From assembly GCF_003334385.1 (NCBI RefSeq), contig NZ_QOWN01000036.1: DNA of 43,104 nt. One strand, written 5' to 3'. The stretch's first letter is position 1; every line of letters begins with the position of its first letter. Below are positions 7,810-39,905 of the stretch, one piece after another. A program made the translations under genes and the position numbers. The notes under the pieces were generated by a model, which made no database searches, was not told the origin of the DNA, and saw only the letters and a program-made list of their open reading frames with translations. Source of the DNA: Escherichia coli (GTDB lineage: Bacteria; Pseudomonadota; Gammaproteobacteria; Enterobacterales; Enterobacteriaceae).

Positions 7810-9378
7810 TTAGCGTGCCGGCTGAGTAGTCGTGGAAGACTGCTCAAAGTGATAGCGACCGGTTTTCAGGCTGCTTGGGCCGAGGCGTGCAAACTTGAAC
7901 ATTAAGAACAATTCTGCCACCAGGAACAGGGTATACAGGCCGCAAATCAGCACCATTGAGAAGATGAGATCGCCTGCGGTCAGTGACGAGTTCGCCACAG
8001 CTGTCGGCAGCACTTCACCGATAGCCCACGGTTGGCGGCCATATTCAGCCACGAACCAGCCCGCTTCTACAGCAATCCACGGCAGCGGAATACCGTACAG
8101 CGCGGCGCGCAGAAGCCATTTTTTCTCGCCAATGCGGTTGCGGATGACACTCCAGAAAGAGAGCGCGATGATTGCCAGAAGCAGGAAGCCACACGCCACC
8201 ATGATACGGAACGCAAAGTACAGCGGCGCTACACGCGGGATGGAGTCTTTGGTTGCCTGTTGAATCTGCGCTTCAGTCGCATCAGCCACGTTTGGCGTAT
8301 AGCGTTTCAGCAGCAGACCGTAACCGAGGTCTTTCTTCATGCTATTGAACTGGTCACGAACCGCCTGGTCGGTAGAACCAGAACGCAGTTGTTCGAGCAG
8401 AGAGTACGCCTTCATCCCGTTACGAATGCGTTCTTCATGCTGCACCATCAGCTCTTTCAGGCCGATAACCGGGGTATCCACGGAACGCGTTGCAATGATG
8501 CCCAGTGCGTAAGGGATCTGAATCGCAAATTTGTTCGTCTCCTCTTCCTGATCAGGAATGCCGAACAGAGTAAAGGCAGCAGGCGCAGGTTGCGTTTCCC
8601 ACTCGGCTTCAATAGCAGCCAGTTTGGTTTTCTGCACGTCGCCCATTTCGTAGCCGGATTCATCACCCAGAACAATAACAGACAGAACAGCAGCCATACC
8701 GAAGCTGGCAGCGATAGCAAAGGAGCGTTTAGCGAAGGCGAAGTCACGACCTTTCAGCATATACCATGCGCTGATACCGAGGATGAACATCGCGCCAGTC
8801 ACATAACCAGACGCTACAGTGTGAACGAATTTCACCTGAGCAACCGGGTTAAGCACCAGCTCGGAGAAGCTCACCATCTCCATACGCATAGTTTCAAAGT
8901 TGAAATCGGACGCGATTGGGTTTTGCATCCAGCCGTTCGCAACCAGAATCCACAGTGCGGACAGGTTTGAACCGAGCGCCACCAGCCAGGTGACACACAT
9001 ATGCTGAACTTTACCCAGACGATCCCAACCGAAGAAGAACAGACCTACAAAGGTGGATTCGAGGAAGAAGGCCATCAGACCTTCGATTGCCAGCGGCGCA
9101 CCGAAGATATCCCCTACATAGTGGGAATAGTAAGACCAGTTAGTCCCGAACTGGAACTCCATGGTCAGACCGGTAGCCACACCCAGAGCGAAGTTGATAC
9201 CAAACAACTTGCCCCAGAACTTGGTCATATCTTTATAAATCTGTTTGCCGGAGAGGACGTAGACCGTTTCCATAATGGCCAGCAGGAACGCCATACCGAG
9301 CGTCAGTGGCACAAAAAGGAAGTGGTACATCGCGGTCAAGGCAAACTGTAAGCGCGACAGTTCGACTATATCTAACAT
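7810..9378 (-). CDS. cydA: Cytochrome bd-I ubiquinol oxidase subunit I
   Basis: 522 aa from [12 protein letters not shown]... (the track ORF has one extra leading Met codon); recognised as CydA. Confidence 0.95.
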
Positions 9379-9712
9379 CATGACTCCTTGCTCATCGCAT
9401 GAAGACTCCGAGAGTGAACCCCGTTAGAAAGGGTCACACGCATGCCCCAATAGAAATTTGTTTGAACACTTTCATCATACCATGTGAATGCACACAAAAA
9501 CGGCGTAAAGAAAGGTTGCAAACATGTTAATAAAAACTCAAATTGATCCCACGTATATATTACGCCGCAAAATCCTTACAATAAACAGGTTTTTGTTGAA
9601 GCAAATTTGCATTTTTCGACGGTGATCAATTTATAGCTAAATTACCGCCTTTCAGCCAATTTGATCGAGAACAATTTATCTCTTTTTGATGCCCATTTCC
9701 AAGACTTATACA

Positions 9713-9726
9713 TTGATAAATATCAA
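9713..9726. promoter_or_regulatory. Perfect FNR/CRP-family box TTGAT-AAAT-ATCAA in the cydA upstream region
   Basis: Exact palindromic match to TTGAT-N4-ATCAA about 340 bp upstream of the cydA ATG, in an AT-rich region; cydAB is known to be FNR/ArcA controlled, but the specific site is not verified here. Confidence 0.45.
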
Positions 9727-10015
9727 TTCCTACAAATTATGTTAATCATGTTTCAATAAGGTAACTTTAGTGACATTTATGTTTAAAATGTGTGAGTTAT
9801 AAGGCTGAAATTAGTTTCGGTTGGCAATTAAAGATAAAAAGAGACGAAGCAAAAACAGCACGGTTGACCTTAATTCTTTTTTTGGTCACTGGCTAATACG
9901 ACGCAGAGTTTCAGGATTACTAATAAAGGCATAAATCCACCCCGCCAATATTAACATTTAGTTAACTTATAATTATATTATAATTAACTCACCCAGGGTT
10001 ATTATTTTGTTAAAA

Positions 10016-10040
10016 ATAAAGCCACATATACGTGGCTTGA
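10016..10040 (-). terminator. Candidate intrinsic terminator downstream of mngB
   Basis: aagccac-atatac-gtggctt hairpin, followed on the minus strand by a U-rich tract (tattttt). Confidence 0.45.
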
Positions 10041-10062
10041 GAGTGAAGATAAACGCAAAATT

Positions 10063-10170
10063 ACCTGATGCGCTACGCTTGCCAGTGTCTACATCATCTC
10101 TGCAATATATTGAATTTGCCTGCTTTTGTAGACCGAATAAAGCGTTCATGCCGTATCCGGCATGAACAAA
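10063..10170. repeat. REP/BIME-type palindromic element with internal IHF-like motif (RIP-like)
   Basis: cctgatgcgctacgc and tgtagaccgaataaagcgttcatgccgtatccggcatgaac palindromic units flanking ctgcaatatattgaatttgc; the same internal motif recurs at 39820-39850. Confidence 0.6.
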
Positions 10171-10224
10171 GCGCCCTTTGTCAACAATCTGGCCGCGCAT
10201 ATGTGGCTTCGGTTTGATTGCTAT

Positions 10225-12858
10225 TCAGGCAAGCCGGTAACTGAACGTCCGTGACTGGCCGGGTAAAAAAGGCCCCGATAGATTTGAACCTTGATTTTCC
10301 TCGGTGGTAATGTGTTCATCCATCATCGTTTCTGAGCAAGAAATCACCTCGCGACTGAAAGCAACAGTCGCATCACAGGTTGCTGATTCAGCCGGATTAA
10401 ACAGCCGTAAAATCACTTCTTGTCGGTCTTCAGCTTTCTTAAGTGCGCTTATCAGGCATCCCACTGGGGGCATTTTCAACAAACTATAACTTTCCGGCAC
10501 GTTGAATCCGGCTTTGTTGAGCTTCATCACATCCCATGGGATTTTGTTGTAACACTGTACTGGAGTCAGCCATGCTCGCGCCTGCTGAGCTACACCAGCG
10601 GCGGTTGGCGTACCGGTATAACTCAATAAACTTAGGCGACAAGAAAGCAGACCACGTAGTTGTGAGTCCGGGACTGGCATTTTAATTCCCGAAGGCCGCC
10701 CAGGCCTTAAAAGCAGATCTTCTTTGCCCAGTAAGCCCACGCCACGCAGCAACGTAATGGCAAAGGTTTTCTTCTCTTCACCGATGACTTCAAATTCACG
10801 TAACCCTTCGCTAAAGACAGCCATGCCGTTACGCCCTTCCTGTAAGGCAACATAGTTGAGCATATTCCATACCGGAACCGGCGCTTCTTTCCAGCCTTCT
10901 TGCTGCCAGTTGTTCATTGCACTGTCGTTCACGGGGCGCGTTAGCGAACCAAACTGCGTATCTGCCAGAACACTGTCGGTGTTAAAAGGTGTAGGGACCA
11001 GGACACGAAGGCGATGATCGTCAGCCTGGTTATCAAGATTGATATCCACATCAATACGCCTGCTGTTATGACTAAGAGTGACAACCAACACCACCCCTAC
11101 TCTGCCAGTGGATTGCCGGGCGCTGCGTTCTGACAAATTGAGCGGCACTGCCATGTCATAGCGGATAACAGCCCTGCTCTGCCAGGCTTCATGAATAATA
11201 TCGCATTGCGGTTTCGCGTTCGCTGCGGTAATTACCCACTCTTCTTTTGCGGGTGAATAGTCATATTCATCACCATCATCAGAGCTTTCTTCAATTTGCA
11301 ATACCCGGTCATAGCGCACACCGCTGTCTTTATCTACCAGTTGCAGAGAACCATCCTCATTGAGCGCAATTTGCCAGAAAGCATTTTCCAGTATCCCTTC
11401 AGCGTCACTTTTTGCCGCAATTACGTTGCCAGGCTGATTCGCTTCGATATAAAGCGTGCGATAGCCCATAGAAGGGACAATCTGGTTGATCTGTATATCA
11501 AACTCCATAAAGGGATCGTAATTACCGTAATGAACTATTTGCCGATCGATTAGGCCTGGATCGATCTCACGGGCATGGCGAATAAAATACGGTACAGGCT
11601 GACCGCGATCGTCCCGCAAATTAAACTGGCTGGCGCGCAGCCGCACAGTGGTGTTGATAACTTCTTCACGCGGCCAGGGCATCAGGTTAAACAGGACGAG
11701 TTTGTCGGCGTCGCTCTGCGGCATGTTGTCGGCAATTTTGCGCATGTAGAAACGAATCAGATTATCCGCCATGTCTTCAGCCAGTTCGAAGCGGGCGACG
11801 ATTTCGCGATGAACTTTGTCACTACAGCAGCAGCCGATACTGTCGTGGGCATGATTTTTTAAGATCTCTTTCCACATTTTCTCCAGCAAGCCGTGGTGGT
11901 ATTCAAAACCCAACGTCCAGGCCAGTGTTGCCAGCGGTTCCAGCAGATTAACAATCTTATTTTCAATACGCGCGTGGGCAATTTTGATATCCATACGCGT
12001 AGAACCGATGGTGCGATGCACGCGCATATATTTGCCATCAATAAATTCCCCTTTCAGGGTTGCCAGATTATCTCGCTGCGCTTCGATCTTCTCAAATACC
12101 TCTTCAAAGCGGCTCATCACAAACTTACGTTGAGGGTAGATCTCACGTAGCTTATCCATCACTTCGAAGATATTTTGCTGCAATGGCATCTGGTCATGCC
12201 CATTCGGCAGCAAAATCTCTTTGGTTACAGACGCTTTTTCCAGCACGTCAAAATAACTGTCGAGGCGTTTACGTAATCCGTTTTCGTCGGCAGGTAAGTA
12301 CTTACCGATGGCGTAGCCCAGCGGCAGCACCTGCGCCGTCACTTCGCTACCGTCACTGCTTTGCCACAAAAACTCGGTTTTATCAGTACCGTGGCGCTCC
12401 GAACATCCGCGCCAGAACATGGTGCGGGTAATGCCAAATCCATTGTAGATATGCGGCAGTTGCCCGGACATGCCAAAGGAATCTGGTAAATAACCTATTT
12501 TCATCGGCTCGCCAAACGCGAGGCAGTCACGCATTCCGTACATCAGATTACGGACGATGGATTCCGCAGAAACAATCGTGGTATCGGTCTGGGTATACCA
12601 GGGGCCGATAATCAACTTGCCGGCTTCTACCTGTTTCTTCACACGGTCTTTGTTTTCCGGTTTCACCGCGAAATAATCTTCGAGGATCGCCGTTTGCCCG
12701 TCGAGTACGTAATATTTGTATTCGTTGTCCTGTTCCAGTCGGCACAGGATCTCTTCCATATTATTGACCAGCAGAATACGTGACTCTTCGGTGGTGAAAT
12801 ACCACTCTCGATCCCAGTGCATATGCGGGGTGATGTGAACGCGAGATACTGCTTTCAT
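10225..12858 (-). CDS. mngB: Alpha-mannosidase / mannosyl-D-glycerate hydrolase (GH38)
   Basis: 877-aa ORF with GH38 N-terminal motifs (HMHWDREW); downstream of mngA. Confidence 0.93.
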
Positions 12859-16656: not shown

Positions 16657-17822
16657 TATTTCCCCTCCACTGCGGCAACAACCTGCTGAGCTGCATCCGT
16701 CAGACCTTTTGCTGCAATAATATTCAGGCCGCTGTCAGCCAGTTTCTTCGCGCCGAGTTCGGCGTTGTTACCTTCCAGACGTACCACGACCGGTACGTTA
16801 ACACCCACTTCTGCTACCGCGCCGATGATACCGTCAGCGATCAGGTCGCAACGAACGATACCGCCGAAGATGTTAACCAGAACGGCTTTCACTTTGTCGT
16901 CAGAGAGGATGATTTTGAACGCTTCGGTTACACGTTCTTTGGTTGCGCCGCCGCCAACGTCAAGGAAGTTAGCCGGTTCGCCGCCGTGCAGTTTAACGAT
17001 GTCCATCGTACCCATCGCCAGACCTGCGCCGTTAACCATACAACCGATGTTACCGTCCAGCGCAACGTAGTTCAGTTCCCACTGTGCAGCCTGTGCTTCA
17101 CGCGGATCTTCCTGCGACTGGTCACGCATTTCGCGCAGATCAGGCTGGCGGAACAGTGCGTTGCCGTCAGCGCCCAGTTTGCCGTCGAGGCAAATCAGAT
17201 CGCCCTGTTTGGTGATGACCAGCGGGTTGATTTCGATCAACGCCAGGTCGCGCTCCAGGAAAATGGTCGCCAGGCCCATGAAGATTTTGGTGAACTGCTG
17301 AACCAGTTTACCTTCCAGACCCAGTTTGAACGCCAGCTCGCGTCCCTGATACGGCATCGGGCCAGTCAGCGGATCAAGCGCAACTTTATGGATCAGGTGC
17401 GGAGTTTCTTCCGCCACTTTTTCGATTTCCACGCCGCCTTCGGTGGAGGCCATAAAGACCACACGACGGGAACTACGGTCAACAACGGCACCGAGATACA
17501 GCTCTTTAGCGATATCGGTCGCTGCTTCAACCAGAATCTGGTTAACCGGTTGGCCATTGGCATCTGTTTGATACGTTACCAGACGCTTGCCCAGCCAGTT
17601 TTCTGCAAAAGCACGGATGTCTTCTTTGCTGTTTACAACTTTCACACCGCCCGCTTTACCGCGGCCACCAGCGTGAACCTGACATTTCACTACCCACGGA
17701 CCGGCACCGATTTTTGAAGCGGCTTCTTCTGCTTCGCGCGGAGTAGTACAGGCATAACCCACCGGTGCTGGTAAGCCATAGCGGGCAAAAAGTTGTTTTG
17801 CCTGATATTCATGTAAGTTCAT
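16656..17822 (-). CDS. sucC: Succinyl-CoA synthetase beta subunit
   Basis: 388-aa ORF ([18 protein letters not shown]...), ATP-grasp; recognised as SucC. Confidence 0.95.
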
Positions 17823-39775: not shown

Positions 39776-39905
39776 GCCTGATGCGACGCTTGACGCGTCT
39801 TATCAGGCCTACGTATTTCCTGCAATTTATTGAATTTGCACAAATTTGTAGGCTGGATAAGGCGTTCACGCCGCATCCGGCATCTGGGCTCGATTGCCTG
39901 ACGCG
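39776..39905. repeat. REP/BIME (RIP-like) element in the convergent dtpD-phr spacer
   Basis: gcctgatgcgacgcttgacgcgtcttatcaggcctac and tgtaggctggataaggcgttcacgccgcatccggcat palindromes flanking ctgcaatttattgaatttgc. Confidence 0.6.

Follow-up and report, generated by a model that had tools for sequence, protein, structure and literature searches.

The cydAB control region of Escherichia coli K-12 has been worked out by the Gunsalus, Lin, and Kiley laboratories as an array of five promoters (P1–P5), two FNR operators (FNR-1 and FNR-2), and three ArcA sites (I–III), together with H-NS. The ndh promoter and other FNR-repressed promoters with tandem sites resemble it in having a pair of FNR boxes close to the promoter, with one covering the transcription start, and in being co-bound by ArcA. 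Park et al. 2013 (PMC3798270) list ndh and cydA together among co-regulated operons of the respiratory chain. However, cydAB appears to differ from ndh-type promoters in that ArcA activates it by anti-silencing and FNR represses it only partly, giving a microaerobic optimum. Among dispersed repeats, BIME-1 elements are defined by y and z1 REPs inverted around a conserved L linker (Ton-Hoang 2012).

The stretch of DNA analyzed here, 43,104 nucleotides in length and referred to as the window, is the reverse complement of MG1655, base for base (100% identity). Window positions (w) convert to U00096.3 coordinates as g = 780836 − w, and U00096.2 coordinates are those of U00096.3 minus 777. The mngB–cydA intergenic spacer, w9379–10224 on the minus strand, corresponds to MG1655 770612–771457 and is also 100% identical in many other E. 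coli genomes. Almost certainly, it is from this stretch that transcription of the cydABX operon (cytochrome bd-I) is controlled in response to oxygen in E. coli K-12. The DNA is that studied in the three laboratories, and the published sequences and coordinates of the FNR and ArcA sites are those found in the window, with no sequence difference. While mngB ends at 10225, cydA, also on the minus strand, begins with a tandem ATGATG, of which the open reading frame list uses the upstream ATG (9381) and RefSeq the second (9378). The spacer predicted as 843 bp is therefore 846 bp when the RefSeq start is taken, and either length holds depending on the start codon. It was also predicted to be AT-rich, and its GC content is 37% overall and 24–43% per 100-bp window across 9400–10100, with flanks at about 50%.

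The control region is already known, and each of its predicted features (the FNR box, the ArcA motifs, the terminator, and the repeat element) is genuine and had been mapped before. The original prediction of a multi-promoter, oxygen-responsive control of cydAB is thus correct but ordinary; it agrees with the five cydAB promoters of Shimada et al. 2014 and with an overlay of the published FNR and ArcA sites, which do overlap the predicted motifs. The classic region of FNR repression and ArcA anti-silencing has been re-derived from raw sequence, which makes it a positive control for the scan and adds nothing new. Two other annotations of this DNA were set aside. A 75-aa open reading frame at 9973–10200, called a hypothetical protein in some genomes, was judged spurious; it is composed of the RIP element and the terminator and is unannotated in MG1655. 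A PdhR box published for the mngB–cydA spacer actually matches inside cydA (about w9221–9240), and its authors found cydAB unaffected.

The FNR operator is a 14-bp inverted repeat, TTGAT-N4-ATCAA. The predicted palindrome, TTGATAAATATCAA, lies exactly at 9713–9726 and is the published FNR-1 operator (TTGATATTTATCAA), with perfect half-sites and a center at −53.5 from P1 and about −341 from the ATG. A second box that the original prediction had missed, FNR-2 (TTGTTCTCGATCAA, 9661–9674), has one mismatch, scores 10.9–11.1 bits, and is situated across the P1 start at a distance of 52 bp from FNR-1. In the study of Myers et al. 2013 (PMC3688515), these sites are given at 770333 (w9713–9726) and 770385 (w9661–9674), respectively, both within one ChIP-seq peak with its summit at 770404 (w9655). 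The same study placed the FNR site at −53.5 and classed cydAB among the operons repressed directly by FNR, with expression going further up in an fnr mutant. The coordinate overlay thus brings both in vivo FNR occupancy and an FNR-dependent change in expression to these boxes. The pattern TTGATNNNNATCAA has two matches in 43 kb against 0.07 expected, and none of 100 shuffles reached two. Moreover, a position weight matrix (PWM) built without the cydA sites gave six hits of at least 9 bits in the spacer, compared with 0.85 in local dinucleotide shuffles, only 0.4% of which reached six.

ArcA sites were defined by at least two TGTTA-type direct repeats spaced about 11 bp center to center, an arrangement displayed by the clusters in the spacer. 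Using a PWM from 24 non-cydA ArcA boxes, we found 10 hits of at least 9 bits in the spacer, compared with 2.2 ± 1.6 in shuffles (0 of 500 reached 10). The best spacer scores were 18.8, 15.4, 14.4, 14.2, and 13.0 bits, and the first of these, at 9951–9968, is the top hit of the entire 43-kb window. Park et al. 2013 (PMC3798270) described three ArcA ChIP-seq regions upstream of cydA, with repeat architectures of 3, 5, and 3 and predicted sites at 770081–770111 (w9948–9978), 770260–770311 (w9748–9799), and 770526–770556 (w9503–9533); the sites agree with earlier DNase I footprints, and activation by ArcA against H-NS is cited. Overlaid on the window, all three regions of in vivo occupancy fall on the spacer clusters. 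ArcA site 1 (9948–9978; cydA1 of Park 2013, with the strongest ChIP enrichment) corresponds to the ArcA-like motifs predicted at 9940–9990, and an extra ArcA-like box at 9996–10013 (15.4 bits), beneath the ChIP peak center at w10004, extends the feature to 9948–10013. ArcA site 2 (9741–9799, plus strand; cydA2) comprises five direct repeats at 9748–9799 and a TGTTAA at 9741–9746, gives PWM hits of 13.0, 10.9, and 10.2 bits, and adjoins FNR-1 immediately upstream; the motifs predicted at 9741–9760 cover its promoter-proximal edge and overlap the five repeats only in part. ArcA site 3 (9503–9533, plus strand; cydA3), with three direct repeats and a score of 14.4 bits, falls within the leaders of both P1 and P2, near −155 relative to the ATG, and had escaped the original prediction.

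Conservation was assessed with our own PWM scans, shuffles, and a comparison with about 80 Enterobacterales loci; the scan of genome contigs for such loci returned no Escherichia or Salmonella among the matches listed. From genus to genus, the FNR and ArcA sites stay in place, although the sequence around them falls to 50–75% identity. In most Enterobacteriaceae loci, FNR-1 is found between −334 and −352 relative to the ATG, and in more distant genera between −227 and −396; its spacing from FNR-2 is 52 bp wherever both boxes were detected in Enterobacteriaceae loci and 51 bp in Yersinia. ArcA boxes, including site 3, occupy matching positions in a second E. coli haplotype and in Citrobacter, Enterobacter, and Kluyvera, and that haplotype and other genera likewise have a distal ArcA box, around −570 to −620. 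The TGTTAA at 9741–9746 is invariant across 15 aligned enterobacterial sequences.

Two promoters can be placed on this map, both on the minus strand. We infer the start of P1 (9666–9702) at w9666, about −288 from the ATG, from the published −53.5 position (Myers Table 1), and candidate hexamers read from the sequence are TTGGAA at 9697–9702 for the −35 and ATAAAT at 9674–9679 for the −10, with a 17-bp spacer. P2 (9550–9562) has a −10 element, TAATAT, at 9557–9562 and belongs to the best-conserved block of the spacer. Its start at w9550, which leaves a 172-nt 5′ UTR, was mapped by two independent studies, at 770509 with 21 reads by Kim 2012 and as cydA p2 at −174 by Mendoza-Vargas 2009, and an anaerobic sigma70 peak is also found at 770509 (Myers et al. 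2013, PMC3688515). In addition to the five promoters, Shimada et al. 2014 reported H-NS binding and multiple RNAP SELEX peaks in the spacer.

The distal part of the spacer was predicted to carry the mngB terminator and a REP/IHF element. The terminator scan called a stable intrinsic-terminator-like hairpin with a U tract on the minus strand (10009–10038), 187 nt downstream of the mngB stop. Its stem-loop, AAGCCAC-GTATAT-GTGGCTT followed by UAUUUUU, runs from 10038 to 10019 with eight pairs (−10.2 kcal/mol, z = −4.6), so that the hairpin and U tract of an intrinsic terminator are found on the same strand 3′ of the gene. However, mngB is followed by two terminator-like hairpins rather than one, the other being a hairpin derived from the REP at 10168–10143 (−18.4 kcal/mol) with a weak tail, CUUUAUUC. 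The Term-seq tables of Adams 2021 have no entry for the gene, which was probably not expressed in those conditions.

The repeat element, at 10064–10168, is a RIP/BIME-1 copy as predicted, albeit a decayed one when aligned with an intact RIP and read against the BIME-1 definition of Ton-Hoang 2012. It is made up of a z1-type REP remnant (10064–10092), an L linker with an IHF-like motif (10093–10127), and a y-type REP arm (10128–10162). The linker core, GCAATATATTGAATTTGC, is exact at 10102–10119, and the linker is one base off that of an intact RIP at 39776–39892 in the same window. The 118-bp RIP element occurs at no fewer than 40 places per E. coli genome (5,426 genomes); this copy shares with the others its extragenic position 3′ of a gene, here between mngB and cydA, and the GTAG/CTAC tetranucleotides flanking the linker. 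Both REP arms are recognizable by alignment. However, the z1 arm has lost its palindrome through a 7-nt deletion and is non-folding (−7.7 kcal/mol, z = −0.6), whereas the y arm, with six substitutions, has been remodeled and folds in a non-canonical register, a new perfect 11-bp hairpin (10143–10168) replacing the canonical REP stem. The predicted IHF site between the two REPs is one mismatch from the consensus WATCAANNNNTTR, which has no exact match in the spacer and only two one-mismatch matches, one of them this linker site. No IHF signal is marked for the FNR sites in the table of Myers (PMC3688515). An Rfam E-value search of 9000–10600 returned the RIP linker against ES036 at a sub-threshold level only (21.9 bits compared with a gathering score of 37.6).

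Because a spacer of 24–43% GC inflates matches to AT-rich motifs, and local shuffles still yield about two ArcA-like hits and one FNR-like hit, the palindrome and the TGTTAA motifs might be read as chance products of base composition that bind nothing. However, the observed counts and top scores lie above nearly all composition-matched shuffles, the sites coincide with ChIP-seq peaks, and their positions are kept across genera despite 50–75% identity around them. Chance is accordingly close to inconceivable as the origin of these motifs; conservation and the published in vivo binding data already refute it. There is slightly more room, yet still very little, for FNR-1 serving as an activating rather than a repressor site for some promoter. 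With its center near −53.5, the site is upstream of the −35 hexamer and would not by itself occlude RNAP, but cydAB is directly repressed and more highly expressed in the fnr mutant (Myers 2013), FNR-2 overlaps the P1 start, and the fixed spacing of 52 bp, or five turns, agrees with two dimers on one face that repress cooperatively.

Somewhat less remote, although improbable, is an active part for the distal RIP in cydAB control, through an IHF-bent architecture and/or a constitutive promoter reading into cydAB. The linker contains promoter-like hexamers, TCTACA-17-TATATT (10104–10132, minus strand; 9 of 12 positions matched), and exactly this pair is tabulated as a constitutive cydAB promoter by Shimada 2014, whose multiple RNAP SELEX peaks in the spacer also speak for it, as does the aerobic sigma70 ChIP peak at 770039 (w10020; Myers et al. 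2013, PMC3688515). This peak could equally reflect AT-rich −10-like boxes near ArcA site 1, however, and the terminator hairpin stands between the promoter-like site and cydA. Furthermore, Kim 2012 has no TSS at this site, promoter-like sites in the spacer are no more common than in shuffles (3 compared with 2.9), and the RIP is absent in about 42% of E. coli genomes.

We retain the reading of the spacer as an FNR- and ArcA-governed oxygen switch, which almost certainly works as follows. Several sigma70 promoters serve the operon, two of which can be placed (P1 near −288 and P2 near −172). Without oxygen, transcription is lowered by [4Fe-4S]-FNR dimers on FNR-1 (−53.5 of P1) and on the weaker FNR-2 across the P1 start. 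ArcA-P, on its three clusters of TGTTA-type repeats (near −590, between −420 and −370, and near −155 relative to the ATG), raises transcription, mainly by relieving H-NS silencing of the AT-rich DNA. The two inputs combined make expression maximal at low oxygen. The sites themselves are supported here by identity with K-12, by the coincidence of motifs with published sites, by statistical enrichment, and by positional conservation across genera, whereas the literature supplies the in vivo occupancy, the sign of regulation, and the antagonism with H-NS. The mngB-proximal 215 bp, with the decayed RIP/BIME-1 and the terminator hairpin, lies outside the conserved switch; together these two elements may close the mngAB transcript and presumably insulate cydAB. 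The RIP is not an essential part of the cydAB switch, since the other E. coli haplotype does not have it.

The 5′ leader contains conserved RNA elements at 9382–9437 on the minus strand, namely, a covarying hairpin (9414–9437) and a predicted helix (9382–9406) in which CUUC pairs with the GGAG of the ribosome-binding site and would sequester it. Both lie within the last 80 nt of the leader. The fold of the whole P2 leader is not unusually stable (z = −0.39), and support is confined to the local hairpin. The search of 9000–10600 against Rfam assigned no known RNA family to the spacer or leader. The invariant leader could be a post-transcriptional control element, for example a CsrA-responsive one, that has no Rfam family.

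When 5,426 complete E. coli genomes were compared, about 42% had a strongly divergent haplotype of the spacer (70–80% identity) beside a cydA that is 98–100% identical. The K-12-type haplotype is present in about 58% of complete genomes at 99% identity or higher (for example, K-12, C, BL21 derivatives, and O111), and the second is exemplified by CFT073, APEC O2:K1, O157:H7, and O145. The boundary between them is sharp: from −81 upstream of the ATG, 20–30% of positions differ, whereas CydA is identical or nearly so. The second haplotype is without the RIP and has different left-hand neighbors, and at sites 2 and 3 it has higher-scoring ArcA boxes than the K-12 type. Its distal half might be taken for unrelated DNA, as megablast and blastn find nothing beyond about −370, but this was rejected on account of ArcA boxes at matching distances. 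Fast evolution in one lineage as the source of the K-12 haplotype was also rejected by outgroup comparison. Across the 90 positions at which the two types show fixed differences, the outgroups share the K-12 state at 14 and the other state at 21–27; being split between both types, they indicate that both haplotypes are old. E. coli has two long-diverged haplotypes of the cydAB control region, of which the K-12 type is one.

The idea that E. coli promoter regions undergo horizontal regulatory switching was reportedly put forward by Oren et al. in 2014. Intergenic regions of this kind are termed switched in the description of Piggy (PMC5890482). The cydA locus is similar in that a core gene is preceded by two regulatory haplotypes 20–30% apart with a sharp boundary. 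However, both haplotypes keep the binding-site architecture, which argues for divergence of a homologous region and not replacement by unrelated DNA. We found no paper naming cydA as a case of regulatory switching.

Cytochrome bd-I is important in gut colonization, urinary tract infection, and resistance to nitrosative stress. To our knowledge, mechanistic work on its control has all used the K-12 haplotype. As a tentative proposal, which we consider rather doubtful, the split between the haplotypes may both have escaped earlier description and have functional consequences. If the split is functional, commensal-type and extraintestinal/EHEC-type E. coli would set cytochrome bd-I differently along the oxygen gradient, and regulatory constants from K-12 would not transfer to pathogens. 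In the second haplotype, carried by B2, E, and other strains that are not of the K-12 type, the architecture is kept and the site strengths are changed. The haplotype pair is a natural experiment in how far a multi-input promoter can drift without a change in its logic.

The intergenic DNA between mngB and cydA (9382-10224) is 100% identical to that of E. coli K-12 MG1655 and of thousands of other E. coli genomes. The window runs as the reverse complement of the reference, with both cydA and mngB on its minus strand and g(U00096.3) = 780836 - w, where w is the window position. U00096.2 coordinates equal those of U00096.3 minus 777, an offset verified by comparing where cydA begins in Kim 2012 (770681) and in RefSeq (771458); the MG1655 RefSeq annotation ends mngB at 770611 and starts cydA at 771458. 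The cydA gene opens with a tandem ATGATG (9376-9381), of which the ORF call uses the first ATG (9381) and the annotation the second (9378). Because the upstream ATG is not conserved, being replaced by ATAATG in Enterobacter and AAGATG in Serratia and Yersinia, the annotated second ATG is the likely start. The original prediction gave the spacer upstream of cydA as 843 bp; its length is likely 846 bp. Its AT richness is borne out by a GC content of 37% overall and 24-43% in 100-bp windows, compared with ~50% in the flanks.

We scanned the window with FNR and ArcA weight matrices built from published sites, excluding those of cydA, against a background of 500 dinucleotide shuffles of the spacer. 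The spacer showed enrichment for both regulators. It held six FNR matches of at least 9 bits, compared with 0.85 in the shuffles (six were reached by 0.4% of them), and the 10 ArcA matches, compared with 2.2 ± 1.6, were reached by 0 of 500.

The perfect FNR-type palindrome TTGATAAATATCAA predicted at 9713-9726 (FNR-1) is located exactly there and scores 14.7 bits; the consensus TTGATNNNNATCAA has two matches in the 43 kb, with 0.07 expected. A further box, FNR-2 (TTGTTCTCGATCAA at 9661-9674, ~11 bits), had been overlooked. Myers et al. 2013 (PMC3688515) reported two cydA FNR PWM sites within one FNR ChIP-seq peak, and overlaying these mapped sites on the window places 770333 TTGATATTTATCAA at w9713-9726, coinciding with FNR-1, and 770385 TTGTTCTCGATCAA at w9661-9674, coinciding with FNR-2; the peak summit (770404/5) falls at w9655. 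In the same study, the cydAB FNR site lies at -53.5 and the operon is classed as directly repressed. From the -53.5 position, the start of promoter P1 is derived as w9666, which falls inside FNR-2 and sets the center of that box at -1.5. TTGGAA (9697-9702) and ATAAAT (9674-9679) are plausible P1 hexamers, their placement being inferred. The other perfect consensus match in the window, TTGATTTCGATCAA at 17227-17240, scores 17.9 bits, above the cydA box, and coordinate mapping places it within the sucC coding region; it is absent among the ChIP-bound FNR sites examined from Myers et al. 2013 (PMC3688515).

For ArcA, Park et al. 2013 (PMC3798270) described three ChIP-seq regions upstream of cydA, said to match earlier DNase footprints. 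Their predicted sites correspond to w9948-9978 (cydA1, or site 1; 770081-770111), w9748-9799 (cydA2, or site 2, with five repeats; 770260-770311), and w9503-9533 (cydA3, or site 3; 770526-770556). The TGTTAA-type cluster noticed at 9940-9990 therefore represents site 1, and the top ArcA match of the whole window (9951-9968, 18.8 bits) was found here. The motif noticed at 9741-9760 catches only the edge of site 2; all 15 aligned sequences share its TGTTAA at 9741-9746. Site 3 was missed. An additional ArcA-like box, GGGTTATTATTTTGTTAA at 9996-10013 (15.4 bits), lies between the terminator and site 1, directly beneath the center of the region-1 ChIP-seq peak of Park 2013 (770055 = w10004); it is not among the ArcA sites listed in that study (PMC3798270).

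The multipromoter control invoked by the original prediction agrees with the literature. According to Shimada 2014, the mngB-cydA spacer has five known promoters, shows multiple RNAP peaks, and is bound by H-NS. The P2 start was mapped to 770509 (w9550), with a leader of 172 nt, by Kim 2012 and given as cydA p2 at -174 by Mendoza-Vargas 2009. The P2 -10 hexamer is TAATAT (9557-9562). In C43(DE3) and strain LR-31, a 768-bp IS1 with target duplication CGGTAATT is inserted at w9640-9647, between P1/FNR-2 and P2; in C43(DE3), this is the known insertion at -262 from cydA. Judged from its position, IS1 would separate P2 from the FNR and ArcA sites that lie upstream in these strains.

The distal spacer was predicted to carry the mngB terminator and a REP/IHF-motif element. 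A stable hairpin with a U tract is indeed present at 10038-10019 (minus strand; -10.2 kcal/mol, z = -4.6). The element is a RIP/BIME-1, in which y and z1 REPs are inverted around a linker with an IHF-like motif: its linker, GCAATATATTGAATTTGC at 10102-10119, has one mismatch to that of an intact RIP at 39776-39892, and each arm of one element aligns with its counterpart in the other. By the BIME-1 definition of Ton-Hoang 2012, the cydA-upstream copy is a decayed member. Unlike the canonical element, it has a 7-nt deletion in the z1 arm, which has lost its fold (z = -0.6), and its y arm is now a perfect 11-bp hairpin (-18.4 kcal/mol). The intact copy, used here as an internal reference, is flanked by two convergent ORFs, and its two REP arms both fold, at -21.3 and -18.7 kcal/mol. 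The 118-bp RIP element occurs in at least 40 places in each of 5,426 genomes. Within the linker of the cydA copy, the promoter-like hexamers TCTACA-17-TATATT (10104-10132, minus strand) are tabulated as the "constitutive promoter" of cydAB by Shimada 2014; no start was reported there by Kim 2012. A sigma70 ChIP peak, stronger aerobically, lies at w10020, ~80-110 bp downstream of these hexamers. The predicted terminator also sits downstream, and a transcript starting here would meet it at 10038-10019, giving an RNA of ~60-90 nt. A 75-aa ORF built from the RIP and terminator (9973-10200, minus strand) is probably spurious; it is unannotated in MG1655, while many genomes annotated with PGAP list it as "hypothetical protein" WP_001324497.1.

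The cydA loci listed for 80 Enterobacterales species were compared. In most of those from Enterobacteriaceae, among them Citrobacter, Enterobacter, Kluyvera, and Lelliottia, FNR-1 is perfect or has one mismatch and is found at -334 to -352 relative to the ATG. Distant genera (Pantoea, Serratia, Dickeya, Yersinia, Xenorhabdus, and others) have one-mismatch boxes over a wider range of positions, -227 to -396. The spacing from FNR-1 to FNR-2 is 52 bp in every Enterobacteriaceae locus where both were detected and 51 bp in Yersinia. ArcA boxes recur at ~-155, -421/-410/-381, and ~-570 to -620 in Citrobacter, Enterobacter, Kluyvera, and a second E. coli haplotype, and conservation within the spacer is highest in the P2 core AAAAACCTGTTTATTGTAAGGATTTTGCGGCGTAATATA. 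The retention of FNR, ArcA, and P2 positions across genera shows that the switch architecture is old and under selection. The P1-P2 block at 9560-9640 (minus strand), GCTATAAATTGATCACCGTCGAAAAATGCAAAT, is nearly invariant across genera and includes an FNR-like half-site pair, TTGATCACCGTCGA at 9616-9629, with one mismatch in Citrobacter.

Among 5,426 complete E. coli genomes, spacer identity is bimodal. The K-12-type spacer is present at ≥99% identity in 3,177 (~58%), a second type in ~2,245 (~42%), including CFT073, APEC O2:K1, O157:H7, and O145, and only four genomes are intermediate. The second type matches only the cydA-proximal ~370 bp, at ~80%, and has no RIP; its left-hand neighbor also differs from that of the K-12 type and can be a TPR-protein pseudogene, sucD, or a methylaspartate-mutase cluster. 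As the mngB-proximal 215 bp (RIP and terminator) is absent from it, this segment lies outside the conserved switch. The two types share 98-100% identity in the cydA coding sequence (C43 and MS10860 share CydA accession WP_000884361.1), and identity drops sharply at ~-81 from the cydA ATG. Compared with TUM13770, the diverged block extends from ~w9459 to ~w11400, inside mngB, at 73-85% identity, beyond which identity tapers to 98-100% in sucCD. E. coli has two forms of the cydA control region together with the 3' half of mngB, and these haplotypes are only 70-85% identical. At 70-73% identity, the haplotypes are as distant from each other as either is from Citrobacter or Enterobacter, and at 90 fixed differences, outgroups agree with K-12 at 14 sites and with the other type at 21-27. 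Both haplotypes have FNR-1, FNR-2, the P2 core, and the ArcA positions, and the non-K-12 type has higher ArcA box scores at sites 2 and 3. Our literature search found no description of this split for cydA.

The last ~80 nt of the cydA leader are invariant between the two haplotypes. Among 17 enterobacterial sequences, a leader hairpin at 9414-9437 (minus strand) is 94% paired, with compensatory changes in five of its seven pairs. For the whole predicted structure, 97.8% of cells pair, a share that falls to 30-60% on sliding the 3' partners. A predicted invariant helix (9382-9406, minus strand) pairs CUUC with GGAG, the Shine-Dalgarno sequence of the ribosome-binding site. The leader contains two GGAGUC motifs 26 nt apart, and a 3.5-fold activation of cydABX translation by CsrA was reported in Salmonella; an Rfam search returned no family matching the leader. 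Term-seq 3' ends on the minus strand at -21 (w9399, inside the leader helix) and +24 of cydA (w9354) (Adams 2021) hint at pausing, processing, or premature termination at the cydA start.

Overall, the observation behind the original prediction is confirmed and its reading as oxygen-responsive control is supported, as the FNR and ArcA motifs coincide with published in vivo sites (Myers 2013 and Park 2013). The published cydAB oxygen-control mechanism is the best explanation of the region. In this mechanism, FNR dimers on FNR-1 and FNR-2 repress cydAB under anoxia, and ArcA-P at the three repeat clusters activates it, mainly by opposing H-NS on AT-rich DNA, an antagonism described by Govantes 2000 as summarized by Park 2013 (PMC3798270); with both in play, cydAB expression peaks at low oxygen. 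This control region has been described in detail before and is therefore of little interest as a discovery; only the haplotype split and the structured leader may be worth following up.
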